The position numbers and the translations under genes were made by a program. This document shows, one piece after another, positions 3,116 through 41,900 of a DNA stretch of 64,000 bases. Origin of the DNA: Nemertoderma westbladi (taxonomy: Eukaryota; Animalia; Xenacoelomorpha); assembly GCA_032718475.1 (NCBI GenBank), contig JAUCBJ010008014.1, positions 14,318 to 78,317 of the forward strand. The letters are read 5' to 3'. Numbering within the stretch: position 1 is the first letter of the stretch; the number at the start of each line of letters is the position of its first letter. Under the pieces are notes generated by a model. That model did not search any database. It was given only the letters and a program-made list of their open reading frames with translations, and had not been told where the DNA came from.

Positions 3116-3135
3116 TACTCGTCTCTATATCTAAT

Positions 3136-10175: not shown

Positions 10176-10556
10176 TATGTCTGTATGTAGGTCTACATAC
10201 ATATTTATCTTGGGTGGAATAAATGGAATGCCTTCGGCGGGGGAAACTAATTTGTTTGGAAAAAGTAACTTCTATATTATTATTATTATTAATGAATAAT
10301 TTGATGAACTCTGTAGTTTTAACAATGTAACTTGGCAGAGGATACGGATGTCAGAGAGGAGTTGAGACGCAGAGAGGTTACAGCAGTAAATTTTGCAAAC
10401 AGTCAAACAGAATCTTGAATGGCACCAATCATACTTACAGTAGAACGCAATTATCAGGTTTTGGTAAAACTTTAACAGCAAAAGTTAATTGTAAGTGTAG
10501 TTAGAACTTCAGTGGCTCTACAAACACATTGATTCTACATTAAATAACAAACTTAC

Positions 10557-12856: not shown

Positions 12857-13041
12857 GTTATTATAGTTTACAAACTGCGACCACAGGATGTTACCGAGCC
12901 CGTTGTAATTCCTCCTAAAGGCCTAGTTACCGAGAGAGACGGAGTCAACATTCCCGCTTCTGTTATATCAACTATTTCCGCTCAGTATGTCACTGTCGTT
13001 GGTTCGTTCTTCCCGACATTGGAAGCGGCGGATCACAAAAG
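12857..13041 (+). CDS. aGPCR exon, GAIN domain
   Basis: tatag|VIIVYKLRPQDVTEPVVIPPKGLVTERDGVNIPASVISTISAQYVTVVGSFFPTLEAADHK|gttata; phase 2 joins 13608. Confidence 0.75.
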
Positions 13042-16000
13042 GTTATATTAGTGCAGAATTAGTTTCAGTTTCAGTTTAATTTGAGATATTAATTAAATTG
13101 GTTCGCACATTTTTATCCCATATTTTGTGTATTTCGTTTTTGTACCGTTATAGGGCTTATTTCTGTCAAAAAAACGTATGTTTGTTTGTCTTTCTGTATG
13201 TTTGTTGCACATCGATATTGGCTTGACATATTTTTGGTAAAGTCTGATTTCAGCGTACCCTGTCATCCGACATATGGATTATGTTATATCGTTCAATCGT
13301 TGTATGCAGTTCACCAAACTGTACAATCATATTAAAACAAACTCCAAGATCGGTTCTCGAGATATCATAAAATTATATTCAATTATAGAAGACCGTTAGG
13401 GCTTACTTGTTAAGATGTGTGCCGCTATAACTCTGTCAAACTGTATCAAACTTATCGACAACAGTTACGTAATCGATAATTTCTTGTTCTTTTGATAAAA
13501 TTGTTTGGATTTAGAAGATTTGAAGTTTGGATAAATTTGTATTCAGAATAAGTTTTATGAGAATAAGTTTTTAGAATTTTGAGTAAAAATTAAATTATTT
13601 AATTTAGCAATGAAACCGTGGCTACTAAAGTAATCTCTTTAACGATAGATCCACCACCCAACACCCCGTTAGAAGACCCAATATCGTATCGGCTGGAACT
13701 TCTAACTCCAAAAGGTAAGTAATTAGCACAAACCTTAACAAATCGGTAATTGGACTCAATCAGAACCAAAAAGGAAGGCAAAATCGGTACGTTATGTTTA
13801 AAGATATCAAAGAAATTTAAGAAAATATATGATATGGGTTTAATCTCAGAAACTTTCGGTTGTACTCATAGACTACTCAGCGGTATAGAACAGACGTGAT
13901 CCAATTACAATGTCTGTATGTTAATGTTTGTGTAAATACTACAAGTACGAAAATCCTAACTGTAAACTTAGATAACTGTAAACTTTCCTTTATTTGCTTT
14001 GTGTTCATTTGTTGGGTGGCCTTGTTTGTCACGCAGAAAACAACTGGCATCTAAAATAACTACTCTAATATACTAAATATTTTACCAAGGCTACGAAAAT
14101 CCATTGGAATCAAAGCTCTGACTATCAGATGATATATTTCCAGAGCCTCTGTTAAATATCAGCCCCTGTCGGTATGCTACAACAATACACACACAGATGT
14201 TTCATATAGCATAATATATATTGTTCACTTAGCAAACAAGGCATTGTACAACCTCTAGAACAAAATCTAATTACCAAAACCCAGCACCACCCTGCAGCTA
14301 CTACGGATGTGACCTCCCGACCACTCCCACCGTTGAACTGATGTATCCTATTGGTAGTGGCCGATATATTCGGACCTCCCGACCACTCCCACCGTTGAAC
14401 TGATGTATCCTATTGGTAGTGGCCGATATATTCGGACCTCCCGACCACTCCCACCGTTGAACTGATGTATCCTATTGGTAGTGGCCGATATATTCGGACC
14501 TCCCGACCACTCCCACCGTTGAACTGATGTATCCTATTGGTAGTGGCCGATATATTCGGACCTCCCGACCACTCCCACCGTTGAACTGATGTATCCTATT
14601 GGTAGTGGCCGATATATTCGGACCTCCCGACCACTCCCACCGTTGAACTGATGTATCCTATTGGTAGTGGCCGATATATTCGGACCTCCCGACCACTCCC
14701 ACCGTTGAACTGATGTATCCTATTGGTAGTGGCCGATATATTCGGACCTCCCGACCACTCCCACCGTTGAACTGATGTATCCTATTGGTAGTGGCCGATA
14801 TATTCGGACCTCCCGACCACTCCCACCGTTGAACTGATGTATCCTATTGGTAGTGGCCGATATATTCGGACCTCCCGACCACTCCCACCGTTGAACTGAT
14901 GTATCCTATTGGTAGTGGCCGATATATTCGGACCTCCCGACCACTCCCACCGTTGAACTGATGTATCCTATTGGTAGTGGCCGATATATTCGGACCTCCC
15001 GACCACTCCCACCGTTGAACTGATGTATCCTATTGGTAGTGGCCGATATATTCGGACCTCCCGACCACTCCCACCGTTGAACTGATGTATCCTATTGGTA
15101 GTGGCCGATATATTCGGACCTCCCGACCACTCCCACCGTTGAACTGATGTATCCTATTGGTAGTGGCCGATATATTCGGACCTCCCGACCACTCCCACCG
15201 TTGAACTGATGTATCCTATTGGTAGTGGCCGATATATTCGGACCTCCCGACCACTCCCACCGTTGAACTGATGTATCCTATTGGTAGTGGCCGATATATT
15301 CGGACCTCCCGACCACTCCCACCGTTGAACTGATGTATCCTATTGGTAGTGGCCGATATATTCGGACCTCCCGACCACTCCCACCGTTGAACTGATGTAT
15401 CCTATTGGTAGTGGCCGATATATTCGGACCTCCCGACCACTCCCACCGTTGAACTGATGTATCCTATTGGTAGTGGCCGATATATTCGGACCTCCCGACC
15501 ACTCCCACCGTTGAACTGATGTATCCTATTGGTAGTGGCCGATATATTCGGACCTCCCGACCACTCCCACCGTTGAACTGATGTATCCTATTGGTAGTGG
15601 CCGATATATTCGGACCTCCCGACCACTCCCACCGTTGAACTGATGTATCCTATTGGTAGTGGCCGATATATTCGGACCTCCCGACCACTCCCACCGTTGA
15701 ACTGATGTATCCTATTGGTAGTGGCCGATATATTCGGACCTCCCGACCACTCCCACCGTTGAACTGATGTATCCTATTGGTAGTGGCCGATATATTCGGA
15801 CCTCCCGACCACTCCCACCGTTGAACTGATGTATCCTATTGGTAGTGGCCGATATATTCGGACCTCCCGACCACTCCCACCGTTGAACTGATGTATCCTA
15901 TTGGTAGTGGCCGATATATTCGGACCTCCCGACCACTCCCACCGTTGAACTGATGTATCCTATTGGTAGTGGCCGATATATTCGGACCTCCCGACCACTC

Positions 16001-19000
16001 CCACCGTTGAACTGATGTATCCTATTGGTAGTGGCCGATATATTCGGACCTCCCGACCACTCCCACCGTTGAACTGATGTATCCTATTGGTAGTGGCCGA
16101 TATATTCGGACCTCCCGACCACTCCCACCGTTGAACTGATGTATCCTATTGGTAGTGGCCGATATATTCGGACCTCCCGACCACTCCCACCGTTGAACTG
16201 ATGTATCCTATTGGTAGTGGCCGATATATTCGGACCTCCCGACCACTCCCACCGTTGAACTGATGTATCCTATTGGTAGTGGCCGATATATTCGGACCTC
16301 CCGACCACTCCCACCGTTGAACTGATGTATCCTATTGGTAGTGGCCGATATATTCGGACCTCCCGACCACTCCCACCGTTGAACTGATGTATCCTATTGG
16401 TAGTGGCCGATATATTCGGACCTCCCGACCACTCCCACCGTTGAACTGATGTATCCTATTGGTAGTGGCCGATATATTCGGACCTCCCGACCACTCCCAC
16501 CGTTGAACTGATGTATCCTATTGGTAGTGGCCGATATATTCGGACCTCCCGACCACTCCCACCGTTGAACTGATGTATCCTATTGGTAGTGGCCGATATA
16601 TTCGGACCTCCCGACCACTCCCACCGTTGAACTGATGTATCCTATTGGTAGTGGCCGATATATTCGGACCTCCCGACCACTCCCACCGTTGAACTGATGT
16701 ATCCTATTGGTAGTGGCCGATATATTCGGACCTCCCGACCACTCCCACCGTTGAACTGATGTATCCTATTGGTAGTGGCCGATATATTCGGACCTCCCGA
16801 CCACTCCCACCGTTGAACTGATGTATCCTATTGGTAGTGGCCGATATATTCGGACCTCCCGACCACTCCCACCGTTGAACTGATGTATCCTATTGGTAGT
16901 GGCCGATATATTCGGACCTCCCGACCACTCCCACCGTTGAACTGATGTATCCTATTGGTAGTGGCCGATATATTCGGACCTCCCGACCACTCCCACCGTT
17001 GAACTGATGTATCCTATTGGTAGTGGCCGATATATTCGGACCTCCCGACCACTCCCACCGTTGAACTGATGTATCCTATTGGTAGTGGCCGATATATTCG
17101 GACCTCCCGACCACTCCCACCGTTGAACTGATGTATCCTATTGGTAGTGGCCGATATATTCGGACCTCCCGACCACTCCCACCGTTGAACTGATGTATCC
17201 TATTGGTAGTGGCCGATATATTCGGACCTCCCGACCACTCCCACCGTTGAACTGATGTATCCTATTGGTAGTGGCCGATATATTCGGACCTCCCGACCAC
17301 TCCCACCGTTGAACTGATGTATCCTATTGGTAGTGGCCGATATATTCGGACCTCCCGACCACTCCCACCGTTGAACTGATGTATCCTATTGGTAGTGGCC
17401 GATATATTCGGACCTCCCGACCACTCCCACCGTTGAACTGATGTATCCTATTGGTAGTGGCCGATATATTCGGACCTCCCGACCACTCCCACCGTTGAAC
17501 TGATGTATCCTATTGGTAGTGGCCGATATATTCGGACCTCCCGACCACTCCCACCGTTGAACTGATGTATCCTATTGGTAGTGGCCGATATATTCGGACC
17601 TCCCGACCACTCCCACCGTTGAACTGATGTATCCTATTGGTAGTGGCCGATATATTCGGACCTCCCGACCACTCCCACCGTTGAACTGATGTATCCTATT
17701 GGTAGTGGCCGATATATTCGGACCTCCCGACCACTCCCACCGTTGAACTGATGTATCCTATTGGTAGTGGCCGATATATTCGGACCTCCCGACCACTCCC
17801 ACCGTTGAACTGATGTATCCTATTGGTAGTGGCCGATATATTCGGACCTCCCGACCACTCCCACCGTTGAACTGATGTATCCTATTGGTAGTGGCCGATA
17901 TATTCGGACCTCCCGACCACTCCCACCGTTGAACTGATGTATCCTATTGGTAGTGGCCGATATATTCGGACCTCCCGACCACTCCCACCGTTGAACTGAT
18001 GTATCCTATTGGTAGTGGCCGATATATTCGGACCTCCCGACCACTCCCACCGTTGAACTGATGTATCCTATTGGTAGTGGCCGATATATTCGGACCTCCC
18101 GACCACTCCCACCGTTGAACTGATGTATCCTATTGGTAGTGGCCGATATATTCGGACCTCCCGACCACTCCCACCGTTGAACTGATGTATCCTATTGGTA
18201 GTGGCCGATATATTCGGACCTCCCGACCACTCCCACCGTTGAACTGATGTATCCTATTGGTAGTGGCCGATATATTCGGACCTCCCGACCACTCCCACCG
18301 TTGAACTGATGTATCCTATTGGTAGTGGCCGATATATTCGGACCTCCCGACCACTCCCACCGTTGAACTGATGTATCCTATTGGTAGTGGCCGATATATT
18401 CGGACCTCCCGACCACTCCCACCGTTGAACTGATGTATCCTATTGGTAGTGGCCGATATATTCGGACCTCCCGACCACTCCCACCGTTGAACTGATGTAT
18501 CCTATTGGTAGTGGCCGATATATTCGGACCTCCCGACCACTCCCACCGTTGAACTGATGTATCCTATTGGTAGTGGCCGATATATTCGGACCTCCCGACC
18601 ACTCCCACCGTTGAACTGATGTATCCTATTGGTAGTGGCCGATATATTCGGACCTCCCGACCACTCCCACCGTTGAACTGATGTATCCTATTGGTAGTGG
18701 CCGATATATTCGGACCTCCCGACCACTCCCACCGTTGAACTGATGTATCCTATTGGTAGTGGCCGATATATTCGGACCTCCCGACCACTCCCACCGTTGA
18801 ACTGATGTATCCTATTGGTAGTGGCCGATATATTCGGACCTCCCGACCACTCCCACCGTTGAACTGATGTATCCTATTGGTAGTGGCCGATATATTCGGA
18901 CCTCCCGACCACTCCCACCGTTGAACTGATGTATCCTATTGGTAGTGGCCGATATATTCGGACCTCCCGACCACTCCCACCGTTGAACTGATGTATCCTA

Positions 19001-22000
19001 TTGGTAGTGGCCGATATATTCGGACCTCCCGACCACTCCCACCGTTGAACTGATGTATCCTATTGGTAGTGGCCGATATATTCGGACCTCCCGACCACTC
19101 CCACCGTTGAACTGATGTATCCTATTGGTAGTGGCCGATATATTCGGACCTCCCGACCACTCCCACCGTTGAACTGATGTATCCTATTGGTAGTGGCCGA
19201 TATATTCGGACCTCCCGACCACTCCCACCGTTGAACTGATGTATCCTATTGGTAGTGGCCGATATATTCGGACCTCCCGACCACTCCCACCGTTGAACTG
19301 ATGTATCCTATTGGTAGTGGCCGATATATTCGGACCTCCCGACCACTCCCACCGTTGAACTGATGTATCCTATTGGTAGTGGCCGATATATTCGGACCTC
19401 CCGACCACTCCCACCGTTGAACTGATGTATCCTATTGGTAGTGGCCGATATATTCGGACCTCCCGACCACTCCCACCGTTGAACTGATGTATCCTATTGG
19501 TAGTGGCCGATATATTCGGACCTCCCGACCACTCCCACCGTTGAACTGATGTATCCTATTGGTAGTGGCCGATATATTCGGACCTCCCGACCACTCCCAC
19601 CGTTGAACTGATGTATCCTATTGGTAGTGGCCGATATATTCGGACCTCCCGACCACTCCCACCGTTGAACTGATGTATCCTATTGGTAGTGGCCGATATA
19701 TTCGGACCTCCCGACCACTCCCACCGTTGAACTGATGTATCCTATTGGTAGTGGCCGATATATTCGGACCTCCCGACCACTCCCACCGTTGAACTGATGT
19801 ATCCTATTGGTAGTGGCCGATATATTCGGACCTCCCGACCACTCCCACCGTTGAACTGATGTATCCTATTGGTAGTGGCCGATATATTCGGACCTCCCGA
19901 CCACTCCCACCGTTGAACTGATGTATCCTATTGGTAGTGGCCGATATATTCGGACCTCCCGACCACTCCCACCGTTGAACTGATGTATCCTATTGGTAGT
20001 GGCCGATATATTCGGACCTCCCGACCACTCCCACCGTTGAACTGATGTATCCTATTGGTAGTGGCCGATATATTCGGACCTCCCGACCACTCCCACCGTT
20101 GAACTGATGTATCCTATTGGTAGTGGCCGATATATTCGGACCTCCCGACCACTCCCACCGTTGAACTGATGTATCCTATTGGTAGTGGCCGATATATTCG
20201 GACCTCCCGACCACTCCCACCGTTGAACTGATGTATCCTATTGGTAGTGGCCGATATATTCGGACCTCCCGACCACTCCCACCGTTGAACTGATGTATCC
20301 TATTGGTAGTGGCCGATATATTCGGACCTCCCGACCACTCCCACCGTTGAACTGATGTATCCTATTGGTAGTGGCCGATATATTCGGACCTCCCGACCAC
20401 TCCCACCGTTGAACTGATGTATCCTATTGGTAGTGGCCGATATATTCGGACCTCCCGACCACTCCCACCGTTGAACTGATGTATCCTATTGGTAGTGGCC
20501 GATATATTCGGACCTCCCGACCACTCCCACCGTTGAACTGATGTATCCTATTGGTAGTGGCCGATATATTCGGACCTCCCGACCACTCCCACCGTTGAAC
20601 TGATGTATCCTATTGGTAGTGGCCGATATATTCGGACCTCCCGACCACTCCCACCGTTGAACTGATGTATCCTATTGGTAGTGGCCGATATATTCGGACC
20701 TCCCGACCACTCCCACCGTTGAACTGATGTATCCTATTGGTAGTGGCCGATATATTCGGACCTCCCGACCACTCCCACCGTTGAACTGATGTATCCTATT
20801 GGTAGTGGCCGATATATTCGGACCTCCCGACCACTCCCACCGTTGAACTGATGTATCCTATTGGTAGTGGCCGATATATTCGGACCTCCCGACCACTCCC
20901 ACCGTTGAACTGATGTATCCTATTGGTAGTGGCCGATATATTCGGACCTCCCGACCACTCCCACCGTTGAACTGATGTATCCTATTGGTAGTGGCCGATA
21001 TATTCGGACCTCCCGACCACTCCCACCGTTGAACTGATGTATCCTATTGGTAGTGGCCGATATATTCGGACCTCCCGACCACTCCCACCGTTGAACTGAT
21101 GTATCCTATTGGTAGTGGCCGATATATTCGGACCTCCCGACCACTCCCACCGTTGAACTGATGTATCCTATTGGTAGTGGCCGATATATTCGGACCTCCC
21201 GACCACTCCCACCGTTGAACTGATGTATCCATGTTAAATTTCGACCAAAACATCTTATTAAATTGAATTTGTAATATTTTAGAACAATAAATTAATTGTT
21301 TTAGAGAGCGACCAGACACCAATGTGTGTCTACTGGGACCCCAGTAACTCCTCTTGGTCACCCAAAGGTCTCCAGTTGCTAAGCAACACCACGGAATTAG
21401 TAGACTGCCAGTCCGACCATTTAACTAACTTCGCTGTTCTTATGGTACCAGTTGCTTATGAGGTAAGTTGATTGTTATTTTTAATAAACCTTTATTTATA
21501 TTTATATATATTATACTTATATATTATATATAACTTTATATATTGTACCCTCAGGGTAGAGAGACTTATAATTAACTAAATTATATAAGATATAAGTGCC
21601 TACTACAGTAATTAAGCATTAAACCAACAGAGTATTATTTGAGTACAACACTGCCCACAACACATAACCGCTAAATAATTAAAATAAAAACAAATCACAT
21701 AAAACCGGTAAATAATTAAAATAAAAACAAATCACATAAAACCGCTAAATAATTAAAATAAAACATTACCATTTTGTATGTATTTTATTGTCTTAATATA
21801 AATATTATTCTTTAAGAAAATATAAATTTAATAGTAATTTGCAAATGTTAACATGTAACATAAACTAACGTTAAAAGGGTAAATTGGTTTGCTGAATAGA
21901 ACGGAAGTTGTTAAACTATCTGGTTGTTTAACTACAATAAACTATGGAGTATTATTATTGACTAACAATTAAGAGTCTCTATAACTTATACATCAATTGT

Positions 22001-23933: not shown

Positions 23934-26900
23934 GTGCTATTTGCTTATAATTTTGAATAATTTAGAAATATATTGTAAAACTTAAATCTTAAGTAACCAT
24001 ATATTTTTCACCTCGGGTAATAAAGAGCAAGAGACAATATTAAAGAAAGAAAATAAAAATTGTTGAAACAAACAGAGAATAACCATTACAAGAGAAGAAA
24101 GTGGTGGAAGATCGAAATATAAGAACGAACAGTTAGTAGGTATAAAAAATGTGACTAAGAGGATATTCAAATGTTTATTAGGAAAATATTTTAGACCGAG
24201 CTGTTATCATTGTAATAAATTGGAAAAAATTGACCTTTTTAGAGCAGATGAAAATTTGTTTTTTGATTTTTTTGAACGAATGTCGAGTGGCACCGAGTTC
24301 CAAATGACAGGACCTCGAAAACTCAGGGATCGTTGGGAAGAGCTAAGATTAAAAAGAGGAGTTGTGAAGTCGCCACGAACAGAAGATGTGGTCCATAAAC
24401 GCCACACGTCATCCATAAACGCCACACGTGGTCCATAAACGCCACACGTGGTCCATATACGCCACACGTGGTCCATAAACTCCAGAAAGACCAAAATGTT
24501 GACAGTTAACTTTGAAAGTCCTCAGCAAGTCTCTGATCGGATGAGCATAAGCTCAAAGGATGGTATGCTTGAGCATGTGGATGACTTCTGTTACCTGGGA
24601 TCATGGATCCGGAAGTCAGGTGAGGACCTCCGAATACGTAAGGGAAAGGCATGGGCAGCCTTGAATAGGCTTTCCAGGATTTGGAAGTCACCGAGAATTA
24701 ATCGGAAACTTAAGGTCCGATTATTTAGAGCAGCAGTAGTTCCAGTACTCCTCTATGGGAGTCCATGCTGGGCTCTAACTGCTGAGGACACCAAATCTCT
24801 GGCCGGCACATTCACAAGAAAGCTAGGCCGGGTTCATTGTGTCAAGTACAATGCACACATCTCCAACCAGACACTATATAACAATGGAGGTGTCTCATTG
24901 GTTCCCCCAAGCTTGACACTAGAACAAAATCGCCTCCGCTTTGCAGGACATTGCTTTCGCCGTGAGGACCCGCCAGTGCATAATCTTGTACTTTGGCAGC
25001 CTCATGGAGTGAATAAGCATGGTGGACAGCCCATGACTTTCTTGAGACGCATCTTAAAGGACACTGGCCTTGAAGATGCGGATGATGTAGCAAATGTCAT
25101 GGGTGATAGGGAGTTGTGGCGGCGCAATTTTGTCGACAAGCCGGCACAGCATTCTTAAAAATGCAGCTGCAATGCAGCATGCCGATACTAGTAGTAGTGG
25201 TCCATAAACGCCACCTCTGGTCCATAAATTTTCAATTTAGGGAAAGGAGCAGGTTACAGTGGCATGTTAATTTAACCAAAACAATAAACTAAACACAATA
25301 GAACAGGTTACAGTTTTATATTTGAGTATAATCAGCTGTTATTTGCGTCTAATTTCCCTGGAGAGGATGAATTATTCTTATAATTAATTATTTATTGCGT
25401 CCAGTCAGTCCCCCCCCCCCCCCCCCCCTCCTATCTGGGTAAATAACAACAACAACATGAACTAAAAAAAGTAAAAGTAAATCCTATGAAAGTAGATCCG
25501 GAAAAGTAAATCCTATGAAAGTAGATCCGGAAAAGTAAATCCTATGAAAGTAGATCCGGAAAAGTAAATCCTATGAATTTCTATGGGAGTATTTTTCTTC
25601 CGCCAGGAAAAAAGTGTTGTCTTACAATACACCTAAAGACTTTGTTTGATAGAAGGCAATTCTCAGAATAAATGCTTTCATTCATTAAACTTCGATCAGC
25701 CAGCCCCATTAGCTTACAGTTCCTTATGAACTACTGCATTATTATATAATCTATTTTTTATACTTTTACAGCTGTCTAACCCGCACGAATTTATCCTTCG
25801 AGTCCTTGGTTTAATTGGAGGAAGTCTGTCGCTGATTGGGCTGGTGCTCACAATTATTACGTATTTACTAGTATGGAGGTTTGTTACCAATACAACTACT
25901 ACTAAGGAACTAGTGGTGCAGCATACGTTGAGGTGTGTCTGATACCTTCTGATACTAACTACTCTACTGTTGTCGTTGGTATTGCGATTACGTTTAAAAA
26001 TTGCGAATCTATACAATTTTCCCTATCTGTATTTCCTTTATATTGTGTGTGTGGCGGAAGGTGGAAGGTGGAAGGTGGAAGGTTTCCATTGCCTAAAGAT
26101 ATTTCTACAGTAGTATTTCTTACAGCACAATATTCCGTATATATAATAACTTATAACTCTTAGGAGGAATTCTTACATTGGGATCCGAGAACCTCTTTCT
26201 ATTGTTCTCCTACATCTTGTAGACTCCAACTTCACTAGCATCGCTTGTTACATCTGACTCCCTCACCTCACTCATCATGTTGTTCTACTATTGTCTGTTT
26301 ATTTTAGATTACTATCGTTTGAACGTAGCTTTGTTCTACTATTGTCTGTTTATTTTAGATTACTATCGTTTGAACGTAGCTTTGTTCTACTATTGTCTGT
26401 TTATTTTAGATTACTATCGTTTGAACGTAGCTTTGTTCTACTATTGTCTGTTTATTTTAGATTACTATCGTTTGAACGTAGCTTTGTTCTACTATTGTCT
26501 GTTTATTTTAGATTACTATCGTTTGAACGTAGCTTTGTTCTACTATTGTCTGTTTATTTTAGATTACTATCGTTTGAACGTAGCTTTGTTCTACTATTGT
26601 CTGTTTATTTTAGATTACTATCGTTTGAACGTAGCTTTGTTCTACTATTGTCTGTTTATTTTAGATTACTATCGTTTGAACGTAGCTTTGTTCTAATATT
26701 GTCTGTTTATTTTAGATTACTATCGTTTGAACGTAGCTTTGTTCTACTATTGTCTGTTTATTTTAGATTACTATCGTTTGAACGTAGCTTTGTTCTAATA
26801 TTGTCTGTTATTTTAGATTACTATTGTTTGAACGTAGCTTTGTTCTACTATTGTCTGTTTATTTTAGATTACTATCGTTTGAACGTAGCTTTGTTCTACT

Positions 26901-29900
26901 ATTGTCTGTTTATTTTAGATTACTATCGTTTGAACGTAGCTTTGTTCTAATATTGTCTGTTATTTTAGATTACTATTGTTTGAACGTAGCTTTGTTCTAC
27001 TATTGTCTGTTTATTTTAGATTACTATCGTTTGAACGTAGCTTTGTTCTACTATTGTCTGTTTATTTTAGATTACTATCGTTTGAACGTAGCTTTGTTCT
27101 ACTATTGTCTGTTTATTTTAGATTACTATCGTTTGAACGTAGCTTTGTTCTACTATTGTCTGTTTATTTTAGATTACTATCGTTTGAACGTAGCTTTGTT
27201 CTACTATTGTCTGTTTATTTTAGATTACTATCGTTTGAACGTAGCTTTGTTCTACTATTGTCTGTTTATTTTATATTACTATCGTTTGAACGTAGCTTTG
27301 TTCTACTATTGTCTGTTTATTTTAGATTACTATCGTTTGAACGTAGCTTTGTTCTACTATTGTCTGTTTATTTTAGATTACTATCGTTTGAACGTAGCTT
27401 TGGTCTACTATTGTCTGTTTATTTTAGATTACTATCGTTTGAACGTAGCTTTGTTCTACTATTGTCTGTTTATTTTAGATTACTATCGTTTGAACGTAGC
27501 TTTGTTCTACTATTGTCTGTTTATTTTAGATTACTATCGTTTGAACGTAGCTTTGTTCTACTATTGTCTGTTTATTTTAGATTACTATCGTTTGAACGTA
27601 GCTTTGTTCTACTATTGTCTGTTTATTTTAGATTACTATCGTTTGAACGTAGCTTTGTTCTAATATTGTCTGTTTATTTTAGATTACTATCGTTTGAACG
27701 TAGCTTTGTTCTACTATTGTCTATTTATTTTAGATTACTATCGTTTGAACGTAGCTTTGTTCTACTATTGTCTGTTTATTTTAGATTACTATCGTTTGAA
27801 CGTAGCTTTGTTCTACTATTGTCTGTTTATTTTAGATTACTATCGTTTGAACGTAGCTTTGTTCTACTATTGTCTGTTTATTTTAGATTACTATCGTTTG
27901 AACGTAGCTTTGTTCTACTATTGTCTGTTTATTTTAGATTACTATCGTTTGAACGTAGCTTTGTTCTACTATTTTCTGTTTATTTTAGATTACTATCGTT
28001 TGAACGCAGCTTTGTTCTAATATTGTCTATTTATTTTAGATTACTATCGTTTGAACGTAGCTTTGTTCTAATATTGTCTGTTTATTTTAGATTACTATTG
28101 TTTGAACGTAGCTTTGTTCTACTATTGTCTGTTATTTTAGATTACTATCGTTTGAACGTAGCTTTGTTCTACTATTGTCTGTTTATTTTAGATTACTATC
28201 GTTTGAACGTAGCTTTGTTCTACTATTGTCTGTTATTTTAGATTACTATTGTTTGAACGTAGCTTTGTTCTACTATTGTCTGTTTATTTTAGATTACTAT
28301 CGTTTGAACGTAGCTTTGTTCTACTATTGTCTATTTATTTTAGATTACTATCGTTTGAACGTAGCTTTGTTCTACTATTGTCTGTTTATTTTAGATTACT
28401 ATCGTTTGAACGTAGCTTTGTTCTACTCTTGTCTATTTATTTTAGATTACTATCGTTTGAACGTAGCTTTGTTCTACTATTGTCTATTTATTTTAGATTA
28501 CTATCGTTTGAACGTAGCTTTGTTCTACTATTGTCTGTTTATTTTAGATTACTATCGTTTGAACGTAGCTTTGTTCTACTATTGTCTATTTATTTTAGAT
28601 TACTATCGTTTGAACGTAGCTTTGTTCTACTATTGTCTATTTATTTTAGATTACTCCGTTTGAACGTAGCTTTGTTCTACTATTGTCTGTTTATTTTAGA
28701 TTACTATCGTTTGAACGTAGCTTTGTTCTACTATTGTCTGTTTATTTTAGATTACTATCGTTTGAACGTAGCTTTGTTCTAATATTGTCTGTTTATTTTA
28801 GATTACTATCGTTTGAACGTAGCTTTGTTCTACTATTGTCTATTTATTTTAGATTACTATCGTTTGAACGTAGCTTTGTTCTACTATTGTCTGTTTATTT
28901 TAGATTACTATCGTTTGAACGTAGCTTTGTTCTACTATTGTCTGTTTATTTTAGATTACTATCGTTTGAACGTAGCTTTGTTCTACTATTGTCTGTTTAT
29001 TTTAGATTACTATCGTTTGAACGTAGCTTTGTTCTACTATTGTCTGTTTATTTTAGATTACTATTGTTTGAACGTAGCTTTGTTCTACTATTGTCTGTTT
29101 ATTTTAGATTACTATCGTTTGAACGTAGCTTTGTTCTACTATTGTCTGTTTATTTTAGATTACTATCGTTTGAACGTAGCTTTGTTCTACTATTGTCTGT
29201 TTATTTTAGATTACTATCGTTTGAACGCAGCTTTGTTCTAATATTGTCTATTTATTTTAGATTACTATCGTTTGAACGTAGCTTTGTTCTACTATTGTCT
29301 GTTTATTTTAGATTACTATCGTTTGAACGTAGCTTTGTTCTACTATTGTCTGTTTATTTTAGATTACTATCGTTTGAACGTAGCTTTGTTCTAATATTGT
29401 CTGTTTATTTTAGATTACTATCGTTTGAACGTAGCTTTGTTCTACTATTGTCTATTTATTTTAGATTACTATCGTTTGAACGTAGCTTTGTTCTACTATT
29501 GTCTGTTTATTTTAGATTACTATCGTTTGAACGTAGCTTTGTTCTAATATTGTCTATTTATTTTAGATTACTATCGTTTGAACGTAGCTTTGTTCTACTA
29601 TTGTCTATTTATTTTAGATTACTCCGTTTGAACGTAGCTTTGTTCTACTATTGTCTGTTTATTTTAGATTACTATCGTTTGAACGTAGCTTTGTTCTACT
29701 ATTGTCTATTTATTTTAGATTACTATCGTTTGAACGTAGCTTTGTTCTACTATTGTCTATTTATTTTAGATTACTATCGTTTGAACGTAGCTTTGTTCTA
29801 CTATTGTCTATTTATTTTAGATTACTATCGTTTGAACGTAGCTTTGTTCTACTATTGTCTGTTTATTTTAGATTACTATCGTTTGAACGTAGCTTTGTTC

Positions 29901-32900
29901 TACTATTGTCTATTTATTTTAGATTACTATCGTTCGAACGTAGCTTTGTTCTACTATTGTCTGTTTATTTTAGATTACTATCGTTTGAACGTAGCTTTGT
30001 TCTACTATTGTCTGTTTATTTTAGATTACTATCGTTTGAACGTAGCTTTGTTCTACTATTGTCTGTTTATTTTAGATTACTATCGTTTGAACGTAGCTTT
30101 GTTCTACTATTGTCTGTTTATTTTAGATTACTATCGTTTGAACGTAGCTTTGTTCTACTATTGTCTGTTTATTTTAGATTACTATCGTTTGAACGTAGCT
30201 TTGTTCTACTATTGTCTGTTTATTTTAGATTACTATCGTTTGAACGTAGCTTTGTTCTACTATTGTCTGTTTATTTTAGATTACTATCGTATGAACGTAG
30301 CTTTGTTCTACTATTGTCTATTTATTTTAGATTACTATCGTTTGAACGTAGCTTTGTTCTACTATTGTCTGTTTATTTTAGATTACTATCGTTTGAACGT
30401 AGCTTTGTTCTACTATTGTCTATTTATTTTAGATTACTATCGTTTGAACGTAGCTTTGTTCTACTATTGTCTATTTATTTTAGATTACTATCGTTTGAAC
30501 GTAGCTTTGTTCTACTATTGTCTGTTTATTTTAGATTACTATCGTTTGAACGTAGCTTTGTTCTACTATTGTCTGTTTATTTTAGAATACTATCGTTTGA
30601 ACGTAGCTTTGTTCTACTATTGTCTGTTTATTTTAGATTACTATCGTTTGAACGTAGCTTTGTTCTACTATTGTCTATTTATTTTAGATTACTATCGTTT
30701 GAACGTAGCTTTGTTCTACTATTGTCTGTTTATTTTAGATTACTATCGTTTGAACGTAGCTTTGTTCTACTATTGTCTGTTTATTTTAGATTACTATCGT
30801 TTGAACGTAGCTTTGTTCTACTATTGTCTGTTTATTTTAGATTACTATCGTTTGAACGTAGCTTTGTTCTCATCAATCTTTGCTTTGCGTTGTTTGTTGC
30901 GATTCTGCTGTTCCTAATTGGAGTGGAAGGTCACGGGTTTCTAAATGTTAGTAGACATGTCTCTATATAACATTCTGGTTGTACTTCTGTAACAGTTCTA
31001 CTTTATTCCTTACAGGATTCTGGTTGTACTTCTTTAACAGTTCTACTTTATTCCTTACAGGATTCTGGTTGTACTTCTTTAACAGTTCTACTTTATTCCT
31101 TACAGGATTCTGGTTGTACTTCTTTAACAGTTCTACTTTATTCCTTACAGGATTCTGGTTGCCCTTCTGTAACAGTTCTACTTTATTCCTTACACAGGAT
31201 TCTGGTTGTACTGCTGTAACAGTTCTACTTTATTCCTTACAGGATTCTGGTTGTACTGCTGTAGCAGTTCTACTTTATTCCTTACAGGATTCTGGTTGCC
31301 CTTATGTAACAGTTCTACTTTATTCCTTACACAGGATTCTGGTTGTACTGCTGTAACAGTTCTACTTTATTCCTTACAGGATTCTGGTTGTACTTCTGTA
31401 ACAGTTCTACTTTATTCCTTACAGGATTCTGGTTGTACTTCTTTAACAGTTCTACTTTATTCCTTACAGGATTCTGGTTGCCCTTCTGTAACAGTTCTAC
31501 TTTATTCCTTACACAGGATTCTGGTTGTACTGCTGTAACAGTTCTACTTTATTCCTTACAGGATTCTGGTTGTACTGCTGTAGCAGTTCTACTTTATTCC
31601 TTACAGGATTCTGGTTGCCCTTATGTAACAGTTCTACTTTATTCCTTACACAGGATTCTGGTTGTACTGCTGTAACAGTCCTACTTTATTCCTTACAGGA
31701 TTCTGGTTGCCCTTCTGTAACAATTCTACTCTATTCCTTACAGGATTCTGGTTGCCCTTCTGTAACAGTTCTACTTTATTCCTTACACAGGATTCTGGTT
31801 GCACTGCTGTAACAGTTCTACTTTATTCCTTACAGGATTCTGGTTGCCCTTCTGTAACAGTTCTACTTTATTCCTTACAGGATTCTGGTTGTACTTCTGT
31901 AACAGTTCTACTTTATTCCTTACACAGGATTCTGGTTGCACTGCTGTAACAGTTCTACTTTATTCCTTACAGGATTCTTGTTGTACTGCTGTAACAGTTC
32001 TACTTTATTCCTTACAGGATTCTGGTTGTACTGCTGTAACAGTTCTACTTTATTCCTTACAGGATTCTGGTTGTACTTCTGTAACAGTTCTACTTTATTC
32101 CTTACAGGATTCTGGTTGCCCTTCTGTAATAGTTCTACTTTATTCCTTACAGGATTCTGGTTGCCCTTCTGTAACAGTTCTACTTTATTCCTTACAGGAT
32201 TCTGGTTGTACTTCTGTAACAGTTCTACTTTATTCCTTACAGGATTCTGGTTGCCCTTCTGTAACAGTTCTACTTTATTCCTTACACAGGATTCTGGTTG
32301 CACTGCTGTAACAGTTCTACTTTATTCCTTACAGGATTCTGGTTGCACTGCTGTAACAGTTCTACTTTATTCCTTACAGGATTCTGGTTGTACTGCTGTA
32401 ACAGTTCTACTTTATTCCTTACAGGATTCTGGTTGTACTTCTGTAACAGTTCTACTTTATTCCTTACAGGATTCTGGTTGCCCTTATGTAACAGTTCTAC
32501 TTTATTCCTTACACAGGATTCTGGTTGTACTGCTGTAACAGTCCTACTTTATTCCTTACAGGATTCTGGTTGCCCTTCTGTAACAATTCTACTCTATTCC
32601 TTACAGGATTCTGGTTGCCCTTCTGTAACAGTTCTACTTTATTCCTTACAGGATTCTGGTTGCCCTTCTGTAACAGTTCTACTTTATTCCTTACACAGGA
32701 TTCTGGTTGTACTGCTGTAACAGTTCTACTTTAATCCTTACAGGATTCTGGTTGTACTTCTGTTGCAGTTCTACTTTATTCCTTACAGGATTCTTGTTGT
32801 ACTTCTGTAACAGTTCTACTTTATTCCTTACAGGATTCTGGTTGCCCTTCTGTAACAGTTCTACTTTATTCCTTACAGGATTCTGGTTGCCCTTCTGTAA

Positions 32901-35900
32901 CAATTCTACTCTATTCCTTACAGGATTCTGGTTGCCCTTCTGTAACAGTTCTACTTTATTCCTTACACAGGATTCTGGTTGTACTGCTGTAACAGTTCTA
33001 CTTTAATCCTTACAGGATTCTGGTTGTACTTCTGTAACAGTTCTACTTTATTCCTTACAGGATTCTGGTTGCCCTTCTGTAACAGTTCTACTTTATTCCT
33101 TACACAGGATTCTGGTTGTACTGCTGTAACAGTTCTACTTTAATCCTTACAGGATTCTGGTTGTACTTCTGTTGCAGTTCTACTTTATTCCTTACAGGAT
33201 TCTGGTTGTACTGCTGTAACAGTCCTACTTTATTCCTTACAGGATTCTGGTTGCCCTTCTGTAACAATTATACTCTATTCCTTACAGGATTCTGGTTGCC
33301 CTTCTGTAACAGTTCTACTTTATTCCTTACAGGATTCTGGTTGCCCTTCTGTAACAGTTCTACTTTATTCCTTACAGGATTCTGGTTGCCCTTCTGTAAC
33401 AGTTCTACTCTATTCCTTACAGGATTCTGGTTGCCCTTCTGTAACAGTTCTACTTTATTCCTTACAGGATTCTGGTTGCCCTTCTGTAACAGTTCTACTT
33501 TATTCCTTACAGGATTCTGGTTGCCCTTCTGTAACAGTTCTACTCTATTCCTTACAGGATTCTGGTTGCCCTTCTGTAACAGTTCTACTTTATTCCTTAC
33601 ACAGGATTCTGGTTGCCCTTCTGTAACAGTTCTACTTTATTCCTTACAGGATTCTGGTTGCCCTTCTCTAACAGTTCTACTTTATTCCTTACAGGATTCT
33701 GGTTGCCCTTCTGTAACAGTTCTACTTTATTCCTTACAGGATTCTGGTTGCCCTTCTGTAACAGTTCTACTTTATTCCTTACAGGATTCTGGTTGCCCTT
33801 CTGTAACAGTTCTACTCTATTCCTTACAGGATTCTGGTTGCCCTTCTGTAACAGTTCTACTCTATTCCTTACAGGATTCTGGTTGCCCTTCTGTAACAGT
33901 TCTACTTTATTCCTTACACAGGATTCTGGTTGCCCTTCTGTAACAGTTCTACTTTATTCCTTACAGGATTCTGGTTGCCCTTCTCTAACAGTTCTACTTT
34001 ATTCCTTACAGGATTCTGGTTGCCCTTCTGTAACAGTTCTACTTTATTCCTTACAGGATTCTGGTTGCCCTTCTGTAACAGTTCTACTTTATTCCTTACA
34101 GGATTCTGGTTGCCCTTCTGTAACAGTTCTACTCTATTCCTTACAGGATTCTGGTTGCCCTTCTGTAACAGTTCTACTTTATTCCTTACAGGATTCTGGT
34201 TGCCCTTCTGTAACAGTTATACTTTATTCCTTACAGGATTCTGGTTGCCCTTCTGTAACAGTTCTACTTTATTCCTTACAGGATTCTGGTTGCCCTTCTG
34301 TAACAGTTCTACTTTATTCCTTGCAGGATTCTGGTTGCCCTTCTCTAACAGTTCTACTTTATTCCTTACAGGATTCTGGTTGCACTGCTGTAGCAGTTCT
34401 ACTTTATTCCTTACAGGATTCTGGTTGCCCTTCTGTAACAGTTCTACTTTATTCCTTACAGGATTCTGGTTGCCCTTCTGTAACAATTCTACTCTATTCC
34501 TTACAGGATTCTGGTTGCCCTTCTGTAACAGTTCTACTTTATTCCTTATAGGATTCTGGTTGCCCTTCTGTAACAGTTCTACTTTATTCCTTACAGGATT
34601 CTGGTTGCCCTTCTGTAACAGTTCTACTTTATTCCTTACAGGATTCTGGTTGCCCTTCTGTAACAGTTCTACTGTATTCCTTACAGGATTCTAGTTGCCC
34701 TTCTGTAACAGTTATACTTTATTCCTTACAGGATTCTGGTTGCCCTTCTGTGACAGTTCTACTTTATTCCTTACAGGATTCTGGTTGTACTGCTGTTACA
34801 GTTCTACTTTATTCCTTACAGGATTCTGGTTGCACTGCTGTAACAGTTCTACTTTATTCCTTACAGTATTCTGGTTGTACTGCTGTAACAGTTCTACTTT
34901 ATTCCTTACAGGATTCTGGTTGCCCTTCTGTAACAGTTATACTTTATTCCTTACAGGATTCTGGTTGCCCTTCTGTAACAGTTCTACTTTATTCCTTACA
35001 GGATTCTGGTTGCCCTTCTGTAACAGTTCTACTTTATTCCTTACAGGATTCTGGTTGCCCTTCTGTAACAGTTATACTTTATTCCTTACAGGATTCTGGT
35101 TGCCCTTCTGTAACAGTTCTACTTTATTCCTTACAGGATTCTGGTTGCCCTTCTGTAACAGTTCTACTTTATTCCTTGCAGGATTCTGGTTGCCCTTCTC
35201 TAACAGTTCTACTTTATTCCTTACAGGATTCTGGTTGCACTGCTGTAGCAGTTCTACTTTATTCCTTACAGGATTCTGGTTGCCCTTCTGTAACAGTTCT
35301 ACTTTATTCCTTACAGGATTCTGGTTGCCCTTCTGTAACAGTTCTACTTTATTCCTTACAGGATTCTGGTTGCACTTCTGTAGCAGTTCTACTTTATTCC
35401 TTACAGGATTCTGGTTGCCCTTCTGTAACAATTCTATTTTATTCCTTACAGGATTCTGGTTGCCCTTCTGTAACAGTTCTACTTTATTCCTTACAGGATT
35501 CTGGTTGCCCTTCTGTAACAGTTCTACTTTATTCCTTACAGGATTCTGGTTGTACTGCTGTAACAGTTCTACTTTATTCCTTACAGTATTCTGGTTGCAC
35601 TGCTGTAACAGTTCTAATTTATTCCTTACATGATTCTGGTTGTACTGCTGTAGCAGTTCTACTTTATTCCTTACGGGATTCTGGTTGTACTGCTGTAACA
35701 GTTCTAATTTATTCCTTACAGGATTCTGGTTGCCCTTCTGTAACAGTTCTACTGTATTCCTTACAGGATTCTGGTTGCCCTTCTCTAACAGTTCTACTTT
35801 ATTCCTTACAGGATTCTGGTTGTACTGCTGTAGCAGTTCTACTTTATTCCTTACGGGATTCTGGTTGTACTGCTGTAACAGTTCTACTTTATTCCTTGCA

Positions 35901-38900
35901 GGATTCTGGTTGCCCTTCTCTAACAGTTCTACTTTATTCCTTACAGGATTCTGGTTGCACTGCTGTAGCAGTTCTACTTTATTCCTTACAGGATTCTGGT
36001 TGCCCTTCTGTAACAGTTCTACTTTATTCCTTACATGATTCTGGTTGCCCTGCTGTAACAGTTCTACTTTATTCCTCACAGGATTCTGGTTGCCCTTCTG
36101 TAACAGTTCTACTTTATTCCTTACAGGATTCTGGTTGCCCTTCTGTAACAGTTCTACTTTATTCCTTACAGGATTCTGGTTGCACTTCTGTAGCAGTTCT
36201 ACTTTATTCCTTACAGGATTCTGGTTGCCCTTCTGTAACAATTCTATTTTATTCCTTACAGGATTCTGGTTGCCCTTCTGTAACAGTTCTACTTTATTCC
36301 TTACAGGATTCTGGTTGCCCTTCTGTAACAGTTCTACTTTATTCCTTACAGTATTCTGGTTGCACTGCTGTAACAGTTCTAATTTATTCCTTACATGATT
36401 CTGGTTGTACTGCTGTAGCAGTTCTACTTTATTCCTTACAGGATTCTGGTTGCCCTTCTGTAACAGTTATACTTTATTCCTTACAGGATTCTGGTTGCCC
36501 TTCTGTAACAGTTCTACTTTATTCCTCACAGGATTCTGGTTGCCCTTCTGTAACAGTTCTACTTTATTCCTCACAGGATTCTGGTTGCCCTTCTGTAACA
36601 GTTCTACTTTATTCCTTACAGGATTCTGGTTGCACTTCTGTAGCAGTTCTACTTTATTCCTTACAGGATTCTGGTTGTACTTCTACTTTATTCCTTACAG
36701 GATTCTGGTTGCCCTTCTGTAACAGTTCTACTTTATTCCTTACAGGATTCTGGTTGCCCTTCTGTAACAATTCTATTTTATTCCTTACAGGATTCTGGTT
36801 GCCCTTCTGTAACAGTTCTACTTTATTCCTTACAGGATTCTGGTTGCCCTTCTGTAACAGTTCTACTTTATTCCTTACAGTATTCTGGTTGCACTGCTGT
36901 AACAGTTCTAATTTATTCCTTACATGATTCTGGTTGTACTGCTGTAGCAGTTCTACTTTATTCCTTACAGGATTCTGGTTGTACTGCTGTAACAATTCTA
37001 TTTTATTCCTTACAGGATTCTGGTTGCCCTTCTGTAACAGTTCTACTTTATTCCATACAGGTTTCTGGTTGCCCTTCTGTAACAGTTCTACTTTATTCCT
37101 TACAGGATTCTGGTTGCCCTTCTGTAACAGTTCTAATTTATTCCTTACAGGATTCTGGTTGTACTTCTGTAGCAGTTCTACTTTATTCCTTACAGGATTC
37201 TGGTTGTACTGCTGTAGCAGTTATACTTTATTCCTTACAGGATTCTGGTTGCCCTTCTGTAACAGTTCTACTTTATTCCTTACAGGATTCTGGTTGCCCT
37301 TCTGTAACAGTTCTACTTTATTCCTTACAGGATTCTGGTTGTACTGCTGTAACAGTTCTACTTTATTCCTTACAGGATTCTGGTTGCCCTTCTGTAGCAG
37401 TTCTACTTTATTCCTTACAGGATTCTGGTTGCCCTTCTGTAACAGTTCTACTTTATTCCTTACAGGATTCTGGTTGCACTGCTGTAACGGTTCTACTTTA
37501 TTCCTTACAGGATTCTGGGTGCCCTTCTGTAACAGTTCTACTTTATTCCTTACAGGATTCTGGTTGCACTGCTGTAGCAGTTCTACTTTATTCCTTACAG
37601 GATTCTGGTTGTACTGCTGTAACAGTTCTACTTTATTCCTCACAGGATTCTGGTTGCCCTTCTGTAACAGTTCTACTTTATTCCTCACAGGATTCTGGTT
37701 GCCCTTCTGTAACAGTTCTACTTTATTCCTTACAGGATTCTGGTTGTACTGCTGTAGCAGTTATACTTTATTCCTTACAGGATTCTGGTTGCCCTTCTGT
37801 AACAGTTCTACTTTATTCCTTACAGGATTCTGGTTGTACTGCTGTAGCAGTTATACTTTATTCCTTACAGGATTCTGGTTGCCCTTCTGTAACAGTTCTA
37901 CTTTATTCCTTACAGGATTCTGGTTGCCCTTCTGTAACAGTTCTACTTTATTCCTTACAGGATTCTGGTTGTACTGCTGTAACAGTTCTACTTTATTCCT
38001 TACAGGATTCTGGTTGCCCTTCTGTAGCAGTTCTACTTTATTCCTTACAGGATTCTGGTTGCCCTTCTGTAACAGTTCTACTTTATTCCTTACAGGATTC
38101 TGGTTGCACTGCTGTAACGGTTCTACTTTATTCCTTACAGGATTCTGGGTGCCCTTCTGTAACAGTTCTACTTTATTCCTTACAGGATTCTGGTTGCACT
38201 GCTGTAGCAGTTCTACTTTATTCCTTACAGGATTCTGGTTGTACTGCTGTAACAGTTCTACTTTATTCCTCACAGGATTCTGGTTGCCCTTCTGTAACAG
38301 TTCTACTTTATTCCTCACAGGATTCTGGTTGCCCTTCTGTAACAGTTCTACTTTATTCCTTACAGGATTCTGGTTGCCCTTCTGTAACAGTTCTAGTTTA
38401 TTCCTTACAGGATTCTGGTTGCCCTTCTGTAACAGTTCTACTTTATTCCTTACAGGATTCTGGTTGTACTGCTGTAACAGTTCTACTTTATTCCTTACAG
38501 GATTCTGGTTGCCCTTCTGTAACAGTTCTACTTTATTCCTTACAGGATTCTGGTTGCCCTTCTGTAACAGTTCTACTGTATTCCTTACAGGATTCTGGTT
38601 GCCCTTCTGTGACAGTTCTACTTTATTCCTTACAGGATTCTGGTTGTACTTCTGTAACAGTTATATTTTATTCCTTACAGGATTCTGGTTGTACTGCTGT
38701 AACAGTTCTACTTTATTCCTTACATGATTCTGGTTGTACTGCTGTAACAGTTCTACTTTATTCCTTACAGGATTCTGGTTGCCCTTCTGTAACAGTTCTA
38801 CTTTATTCCTTACAGGATTCTGGTTGTACTGCTGTAACAGTTCTACTTTATTCCTCACAGGATTCTGGTTGCCCTTCTGTAACAGTTCTAGTTTATTCCT

Positions 38901-41900
38901 TACAGGATTCTGGTTGCCCTTCTGTAACAATTATATTTTATTCCTTACAGGATTCTTGTTGTACTTCTGTAGCAGTTCTACTTTATTCCTTACAGGATTC
39001 TGGTTGCCCTTCTGTAACAGTTCTACTTTATTCCTTACAGGATTCTGGTTGCACTTCTGTAGCAGTTCTACTTTATTCCTTACAGGATTCTGGTTGCCCT
39101 TCTGTAACAATTCTATTTTATTCCTTACAGGATTCTGGTTGCCCTTCTGTAACAGTTCTACTTTATTCCTTACAGGATTCTGGTTGCCCTTCTGTAACAG
39201 TTCTACTTTATTCCTTACAGGATTCTGGTTGTACTGCTGTAACAGTTCTACTTTATTCCTTACAGGATTCTGGTTGCCCTTCTGTAACAGTTCTACTTTA
39301 TTCCTTACAGGATTCTGGTTGCCCTTCTGTAACAGTTCTACTTTATTCTTTACAGGATTCTGGTTGCACTGCTGTAGCAGTCCTTCTACATTATTTCTTC
39401 CTCTCCGTGTTCACTTGGATGTTGAACGAAGGAATTCTCTATTATCTCAACGTAGTCGTTATATTTGAACGGGAGGTTTCCTGGAAATGGATTTATTTAG
39501 GTATCGGTTGGGGTGCGCCGTTATTGGTAGTTGGTATTTCGGCTGGTGCCAGCCAACTCAATGGATACTCGTACGAACGGCCAGGGGGAGATGTTATGTA
39601 AGTATTTATCTTTGGGATATAATAAAGTATTATTTTAATATTTGTTTAACTAAAATAGATATGCCGACTATGTTTATTTTAGTTTATTTTCTACTTTATA
39701 TACCTCAACAGTAGGTTCAGTTTAGTTTATTTTCTACTTTATATACCTCAACATTAGGTTTAGTTTATTTTATACTTTATATACCTCAACATTAGGTTTA
39801 GTTTAGTTTATTTTATACTTTATATACCTCATCAGTAGGTTTAGTTTAGTTTATTTTCTACTTTATATACCTCAACAGTAGGTTTAGTTTAGTTTATTTT
39901 CTACTTTATATACCTCAACATTAGGTTTAGTTTAGTTTATTTTCTACTTTATATACCGCAACATTAGGTTTAGTTTAGTTAATTTTTACTTTATATACCT
40001 CAACAGTAGGTTTAGTTTAGTTTATGTTCTACTTTATATAGCTCAACATTAGGTTTAGTTTATTTTCTACTTTATATACCTCAACATTAGGTTTAGTTTA
40101 GTTTATTTTCTACTTTATATACCGCAACATTAGGTTTAGTTTAGTTAATTTTTACTTTATATACCTCAACAGTAGGTTTAGTTTAGTTTATGTTCTACTT
40201 TATATAGCTCAACATTAGGTTTAGTTTAGTTTATTTTCTACTTTATATACATCAACAGTAGGTTTAGTTTAGTTTATTTTCTACTTTATATACCTCAACA
40301 TTAGGTTTAGTTTAGTTTATTTTCTACTTTATATACCTCAACATTAGGTTTAGTTTAGTTTATTTTCTACTTTATATACCTCAACATTAGGTTTAGTTTA
40401 GTTTATTTTCTACTTTATATACCTCAACAGTAGGTTCAGTTTAGTTTATTTTCTACTTTATATACCTCAACATTAGGTTTAGTTTATTTTATACTTTATA
40501 TACCTCAACATTAGGTTTAGTTTAGTTTATTTTCTACTTTATATACCTCAACAGTAGGTTTAGTTTAGTTTATTTTCTACTTTATATACCTCAACATTAG
40601 GTTTAGTTTAGTTTATTTTCTACTTTATATACCTCAACATTAGGTTTAGTTTAGTTTATTTTCTACTTTATATACCTCAACAGTAGGTTCAGTTTAGTTT
40701 ATTTTCTACTTTATATACCTCAACATTAGGTTTAGTTTAGTTTATTTTCTACTTTATATACCTCAACATTAGGTTTAGTTTAGTTTATTTTCTACTTTAT
40801 ATACCTCAACAGTAGGTTCAGTTTAGTTTATTTTCTACTTTATATACCTCAACATTAGGTTTAGTTTAGTTTATTTTCTACTTTATATACCTCAACAGTA
40901 GGTTCAGTTTAGTTTATTTTCTACTTTATATACCTCAACATTAGGTTTAGTTTATTTTATACTTTATATACCTCAACATTAGGTTTAGTTTAGTTTATTT
41001 TCTACTTTATATACCTCAACAGTAGGTTTAGTTTAGTTTATTTTCTACTTTATATACCTCAACATTAGGTTTAGTTTAGTTTATTTTCTATTTTATATAC
41101 CTCAACAGTAGGTTCAGTTTAGTTTATTTTCTACTTTATAACCTCAACATTAGGTTTAGTTTAGTTTATTTTCTACTTTATATACCTCAACATTAGGTTT
41201 AGTTTTGTTTATTTTCTACTTTATATACCTCAACAGTAGGTTTAGTTTAGTTCATTTTCTACTTTATATACCTCAACAGTAGGTTTAGTTTAGTTTATTT
41301 TCTACTTTATATACCTCAACAGTAGGTTTAGTTTATTTTCTACTTTATATACCTCAACATTAGGTTTAGTTTAGTTTATTTTCTACTTTATATACCTCAA
41401 CATTAGGTTTAGTTTAGTTTATTTTCTACTTTATATACCTCAACATTAGGTTTAGTTTAGTTTATTTTCTACTTTATATACCTCAACAGTAGGTTTAGTT
41501 TAGTTTATTTTCTACTTTATATACCTCAACATTAGGTTTAGTTTAGTTTATTTTCTACTTTATATACCTCAACAGTAGGTTTAGTTTAGTTTATTTTCTA
41601 CTTTATATACCTCAACAGTTAAGAAAAAATTTAGTGTATTGTATACTTTATGTAACTCGACAGTTGGTTTTATTTAGTGTTTTGTATACTTTATGATTCC
41701 TTTCCAGATGCTGGTTAGATCCTTCCGTTGGTGTTTTGTATGCCTTCATAGGCCCCGCAGTAGCTATAGCCGTGGCTAACATGGTGGTTATTGTTATTGT
41801 ACTCAGAACGATGTTTAAAAGCTCGGCTTTTAATAAAAAATCGGAGATAGAACAGATCAAGTGAGTTACATTGAACAGATCAAGTGAGTTACATTGAATT

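Follow-up and report, generated by a model that had tools for sequence, protein, structure and literature searches.

In a 64,000-nucleotide window of the Nemertoderma westbladi genome (assembly GCA_032718475.1, contig JAUCBJ010008014.1, 14,318 to 78,317 of the forward strand; all positions below count from the first letter of this window), a gene predicted to encode an adhesion G-protein-coupled receptor (GPCR) carries a 51-bp minisatellite between the exons for its first two transmembrane segments (TM1 and TM2). This array very probably consists of amplified tandem copies of an intron-exon boundary of the same gene; it was likely seeded by microhomology, is spliced out in the transcript seen and likely adds no protein. 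Tandem Repeats Finder reported 90.1 copies with 98% matches at 26280–30870, and exact 51-nt periodicity spans this interval from end to end; the original prediction had recognised a real array here and begun it one base early, at 26279. The array and the exons next to it are as follows.

26280–30870, + strand: 51-bp minisatellite, 90.1 copies; each unit joins 21 nt from the 3' end of the TM1-TM2 intron, AG included, to 30 nt from the 5' end of the TM2 exon
29668–30840, + strand: 23 units that follow the final 50-nt unit; they keep the exon frame without a stop and belong to the intron in the transcript seen
25772–25878, + strand: TM1 exon, 107 nt; GT donor at 25879; gene model and spliced contig
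30841–30946, + strand: TM2 exon, 106 nt; of the 90 acceptors, its own comes last and is the one used in the spliced contig

The array holds 90 acceptor-like positions (26308 to 30841), with AG in 89 of them and AT in one (27275). Neighbouring acceptors lie 51 nt apart in 83 of the 89 intervals and 50 nt apart, which shifts the frame, in the other six, and 17 distinct unit sequences were found, regionally clustered. As had been predicted, 29668 and 30841 lie exactly 1173 nt (23 x 51 nt) apart, the stretch between them is open in the frame of the TM2 exon, and the unit encodes a hydrophobic 17-mer: these 23 exon-proximal units translate as RLLSFERSFVLLLSVYF in 14 cases, with V replaced by I in seven and other variants in two. 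The remaining 66 upstream acceptor positions all run into a stop. The TM1-TM2 intron measures 4962 nt at present and 429 nt with the array collapsed.

Of six public sequencing runs listed, four (X1 to X4) were compared with positions 25700–26358 at the level of contigs, where depth is no copy number; the other two, X5 and X6, had a share of 0.00. The unit-to-unit junction was present at high depth in all three DNA-like runs (X1, X2 and X3), which represent two samples, one of which may be the source sample; in X1 its depth was 11,475 against about 42 for the flanks, and in X3 326 against 6–8. The same three runs also cover the TM1-TM2 intron. A contig spans the left array edge in X3 and the right array edge in X1, and none spans the whole array. 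The ratios of junction to flank depth varied among the runs, and X2 and X3, which come from one sample, disagreed. The array is not an assembly artefact; these data establish its presence, and its exact copy number could be off.

Splicing across the array

Run X4, labelled 'DNA?', yielded one contig of 2027 nt at depth 72 that consists of exon sequence only (8 of 30 bins covered). Its path leads from the exon with the GPS motif into the TM1 exon, skips an intron with GT..AG ends and continues through one 30-nt exon-part into 30871–30900. The record positions are contiguous (984–1015 and 1016–1122), so that no additional unit lies between the TM1 exon and the TM2 exon-part, and 30871–30900, a unique part of the TM2 exon, adjoins the last copy only. 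The alignment put the exon-part on the first unit because the compared stretch stopped at 26358, but the letters that follow it occur only beyond the last copy, which makes the junction 25878 to 30841; the donor that had been predicted to follow 25878 proved correct (GT at 25879, in the exon model and the spliced contig). Depth in X4 was zero both on the intron part and on the unit-to-unit junction (one run, contigs only). From the two exact exon joins and the zero intron cover we infer that the contig derives from a transcript; its support covers the GPS-TM1 and TM1-TM2 joins, and the remaining junctions are those of the gene model. If most transcripts had extra units, the unit junction would be expected to be as abundant as the flanks, and in X4 it is at zero.

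The last acceptor (30841) is used, and gives the dominant form, in the one transcript-like run of the four. A coding variable number tandem repeat (VNTR) has its units in the mature mRNA; here, the junction between units had zero cover in X4. The proposed insertion of 17-mers into the first intracellular loop (ICL1) was not borne out, the only spliced contig having a single exon-part and zero cover of the unit junction, and the suggested search for junctions from 25878 to each acceptor returned the last acceptor only, in a contig set to which rare forms are invisible.

Fifty-two upstream acceptors are identical to the used one from -28 to +30 (58 nt). The predicted unpaired fractions of the last three acceptors are 0.49, 0.59 and 0.49, and the final one is not singled out. 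Because the 52 decoys are identical and lie upstream, and predicted folding does not set the last acceptor apart, neither strength nor 5' order explains the choice; and since the 23 nearest decoys are stop-free, decay would not explain absent products. Masking of decoy acceptors by RNA structure is not indicated by the folding of the last three acceptors, and recursive splicing was rejected, the AG being followed by AT (or AA), not GT, with no AG-GT word. Most simply, the last acceptor would be chosen by pairing with the downstream donor across the 106-nt exon, that is, by exon definition, and enhancers in the 76 nt of exon that are not repeated might assist. Exon definition is discussed in PMC1557585, which deals with human F7.

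Origin of the array

The word common to both array ends is TTGTTCT, 7 nt long.

26280–26286, + strand: left microhomology arm TTGTTCT, intronic (end comparison)
30864–30870, + strand: right microhomology arm TTGTTCT, exonic, start of TM2 (end comparison)

The microhomology that had been seen in exon and intron is real and one nucleotide longer than the TGTTCT first noted. Among 124,520 random duplications of 30–69 nt in the collapsed gene, an overhang of at least 7 nt occurred in 0.13% (P = 0.0013). An overhang longer than chance would give supports microhomology-seeded duplication; the origin put forward in the original prediction gains support from this excess (P about 0.001) and is not proven by it. 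The 51-nt segment between two TTGTTCT words, which would have sat 28 nt before and 24–30 nt after the acceptor, may have been duplicated by slippage or repair. Later growth could have proceeded by local slippage or unequal exchange, which would also have spread the frameshifted units, and growth of this kind fits because the unit variants are clustered. This course resembles microhomology-mediated tandem duplication (MTD; Haber-Louis model; PMC13167724), the 7-nt arm repeated at both array ends flanking a unit that later expands. The passages searched in that source contain no occurrence of 'splice', and no single-copy allele was seen for the present array.

The host gene and its other arrays

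Nine modelled exons between 12857 and 45282, with AG/GT at 9/9, form a single open frame of 434 codons. A Pfam scan of these exons found the GPS motif (PF01825) at 52.9 bits against a cut-off of 22.5 (E = 5e-14) and matched 7tm_2 (PF00002) on four exons, of which three reach the cut-off. By this domain order, GPS then 7tm_2, the host gene is classed as an adhesion GPCR, and its start is probably upstream of the window. Besides the TM1 and TM2 exons, the model comprises:

12857–13041, + strand: modelled exon 5' of GPS, likely GAIN region; AG/GT and open frame, no Pfam hit
13608–13714, + strand: modelled exon 5' of GPS, likely GAIN region; gene model, no Pfam hit
21305–21462, + strand: GPS exon; Pfam GPS E = 5e-14; the spliced contig links it to the TM1 exon
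39356–39597, + strand: TM3-TM4 exon; Pfam 7tm_2 E = 6e-19; gene model
41708–41860, + strand: TM5 exon; Pfam 7tm_2 E = 3e-4; gene model
43602–43728, + strand: exon for TM6 and the start of TM7; Pfam 7tm_2 E = 8e-6; gene model
45166–45282, + strand: exon that completes TM7 and begins the tail; gene model, no Pfam hit alone

The closest named relatives of the TM3-4 exon are ADGRD1/GPR133, which share the order of GPS and 7tm_2 and are 53–56% identical over this exon, a likeness that rests on an 80-aa query and implies no orthology. Of the 165 candidates in the homolog search with this exon, three matched, all of them mammalian ADGRD1 proteins; neither an ortholog nor a full-length product of the gene was among the results.

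The 51-bp array is one of several in this gene:

30972–39381, + strand: 45-bp minisatellite, about 187 copies, spanning the TM3-4 acceptor; the modelled acceptor is the last copy; no RNA check
41846–42842, + strand: 40/23-bp minisatellite spanning the TM5 donor; 26 copies bear GT with at most 1 mismatch, and the model uses the first as donor; no RNA check
45243–46698, + strand: 49-bp minisatellite, about 30 copies, spanning the donor of exon 45166–45282; the modelled donor is the first; no RNA check
14311–21230, 39672–41619 and 44915–45094: three intronic arrays (62, 43 and 33 bp) with no modelled splice site inside

In each of the four splice-spanning arrays, the model places the site in the copy next to unique exon sequence. 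Four of the seven large arrays in the modelled span contain a splice site, against 0.54 expected (P = 0.0009), as do four of 11 arrays of any size (P = 0.003); these P values are optimistic, as they come from one gene that was chosen for one of its arrays. Each of the three large arrays that lack a modelled site comes within 71–74 nt of one at an edge. Together, the seven large arrays make up 72% of the modelled span.

The 62-bp array has 111.6 copies with 100% matches, and the 43-bp unit array bears the word AG-GT 45 times, which makes it a candidate for a series of recursive-like splice sites. The 8.4-kb intron 30947–39355 has just 25 nt of non-array sequence, and the 45-bp array opens with exon-like letters, so that its original left edge seems to be lost.

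Relation to known systems

Tandem copies of an intron-exon boundary have been described as 'mirage' minisatellites in lancelets, in the globin genes BflGb6 and BflGb9, Adh3, troponin C and PGBD5; according to passages of these reports, splicing stays intact and the generating mechanism is not known (PMC3087553, PMC3902484). The array described here shares with them, as far as those passages go, head-to-tail boundary copies, AG in the units and the retention of normal splicing. Its unit spans a real boundary (21 nt of intron and 30 nt of exon, as located by the spliced contig), the splice signal is kept in 89 of 90 copies, and regular splicing was seen in the single transcript-like run, in which rare forms are not visible. 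As in the parts of those reports that deal with BflGb6, an intron 3' end is joined to the 5' part of an exon, the same acceptor type, but with 90 copies here against 3–6 there. Unlike the lancelet mirages in those excerpts, the units are 98% alike, a multiple of three long and open, and at least four such arrays lie in one gene.

Two human arrays offer further parallels. In the 37-bp VNTR of F7 IVS7, identical pseudo-sites are silent, in-frame ones included, according to passages of PMC1557585, and the copy adjoining the true exon wins over identical neighbours, as it does here. There the donor is repeated, with 5–9 sites of which the first wins, whereas here it is the acceptors, 89 with AG, of which the last wins; a plain first-AG scan does not predict this outcome. 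In the 25-bp VNTR of ABCA7 intron 18, the unit likewise holds the splice site of the adjoining exon, and retention of one unit, out of frame, was detected (PMC5954066, in part). That array is of the donor type; here, retention would be in frame, and it was not seen. A literature search in a limited collection returned no genome-wide study of such arrays and, judged by title and the start of the abstract, none on an adhesion-GPCR array. Taken with the F7 and ABCA7 parallels, the array is likely a large example of the known mirage type.

In-frame units and alternative readings

The in-frame length, openness and hydrophobicity of the units are no more than chance would give. Six of the nine acceptors of the gene are open in frame over their last 21 nt (two of the nine being array-bearing), and the mean hydropathy is at least 1.4 in five of these six. 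A frameshift-free terminal run of 23 units, given six frameshifted among 89, has P = 0.16, and only 8 of 153 single changes of the 51-nt unit create a stop. Any unit length has one chance in three of being a multiple of three. The in-frame 17-mer would be a by-product of such a unit length and of a T-rich acceptor tract. The idea that hydrophobic inserts alter topology also found no support: the best 19-residue hydropathy of the repeat, 1.49, falls below that of all seven real helices (1.59–3.08) in what is a crude, hydropathy-only test.

Several points weigh against the view of a spliced-out boundary copy that adds no protein. The RNA evidence is one contig from one run labelled 'DNA?' of unspecified tissue; contigs drop rare forms, so that scarce isoforms would be invisible; and passages on ABCA7 report unit retention in a comparable human array (PMC5954066). 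The likely beginning of the array as a microhomology-mediated duplication is deduced from a single feature, the overhang. Both modelled acceptor arrays (51 and 45 bp) have unit lengths that are multiples of three and are open beside the exon, whereas both donor arrays have other unit lengths and run into stops. In the 45-bp array, 14 of 173 intervals shift the frame, the last 55 are free of such shifts (P = 0.004 if the order is random), and a 2-nt insertion is its most polarised variant.

We consider it possible, if rather doubtful, that a few percent of transcripts incidentally use one of the one to three upstream acceptors closest to the exon, giving stop-free messages with 17, 34 or 51 extra ICL1 residues that would likely be misfolded or neutral; this would be compatible with the array being a boundary copy that is mostly spliced out, and would differ from it in amount only. 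The nearest 23 decoys are identical or nearly so and in frame, the next exon would have an ordinary size after one or two inserted units (157 and 208 nt), one-unit retention is the ABCA7 precedent, and rare forms cannot show in contigs. Nevertheless, the single transcript-like run bears no trace of such use, the F7 pseudo-sites, in-frame ones too, are silent in the passages cited above, and those on lancelet mirages report that splicing is not disturbed.

A functional use of the array is very unlikely. It would require that upstream acceptors be regulated, that selection keep the exon-proximal units in frame and that a variable number of 17-mers alter ICL1 or the topology of the receptor. In line with it are the frame and openness of both acceptor arrays, which neither donor array shares, and the absence of frameshifted units from the last 23 positions of the 51-bp array and the last 55 of the 45-bp array. 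Against it stand the spliced contig without an insert, the unremarkable P value of the 23-unit run, the low hydropathy of the repeat and the fact that open hydrophobic read-through is common at the acceptors of this gene. Moreover, ordinary substitutions show regional clustering (P < 0.05) in 8 of 14 variants of the 45-bp array, toward one of its ends, and in 2 of 3 of the 51-bp array; as they cluster likewise, the random-order test is not valid and its P = 0.004 was set aside. Local amplification accounts for the polarised frameshifts without selection, although selection may contribute. That both acceptor arrays work as ladders in some tissue or stage, adding variable numbers of inserts, of 17 residues ahead of TM2 and of 15 ahead of TM3, has in our estimation a very slim chance of being right. 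Finally, we give next to no credence to an artefact in which long reads or the assembly expanded a boundary present once. Such an artefact could appeal to a repeat-rich window and to the lack of a contig piece spanning the array, but is contradicted by 17 distinct, regionally clustered unit sequences and by the depth of the unit-junction contigs, which greatly exceeds that of the flanks in X1 and X3, from two samples.

Other features of the window

Three further arrays lie upstream of the modelled exons. The 66-bp array at 5633–10177 has 63 blocks of AG, 32 nt and GT, mostly 34 nt apart, which look like tandem copies of a micro-exon; the first and last blocks, together with the eight most frequent ones, stay open in the frame that would connect to exon 12857, and if any of them is a real exon, they could form a candidate exon-choice array. 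The 34-bp array at 3128–5666 shares the intron part of the 66-bp unit, extends 3 nt into the first 32-nt block and, with 54 exact copies of AG-GCTG-GT, may be a further acceptor-spanning array. The 56-bp array at 1–2802 has 46 copies of a donor-like CA-GTAAG; it is likely a donor mirage, with its exon located 5' of the window.

On the + strand, an exon-like open stretch at about 52087–52770 follows an acceptor and contains a 39-bp (13-codon) repeat in 7.6 copies; it is possibly the C-terminal tail of the receptor or part of another gene. A neighbouring gene on the minus strand has exons at about 60780–62580 that encode, by eye, a transmembrane-like segment and a tail with several tyrosine motifs. 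Copies of a dispersed repeat lie at about 24500–25160 (+), 53720–53980 (-) and 62700–63530 (-), and the part resembling an open reading frame (ORF) looks, by eye, like the end of a LINE reverse-transcriptase element. A short ORF-like stretch at about 49270–49830 (+) presumably carries a PWWP-like pattern, again by eye.

Discussion

The receptor itself appears to be little affected by the array, as the protein seen is the ordinary one. Were the acceptor arrays working ladders after all, they would amount to a minisatellite-encoded length dial and a new way of varying GPCR loops. The clustering of arrays at splice sites in this gene bears on how such repeats arise, a question posed in passages of PMC3087553. 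In addition, an array in which the last of so many identical acceptors is used offers a clean natural test of 3' splice-site choice, and in this animal the outcome speaks for exon definition rather than for scanning to the first AG.

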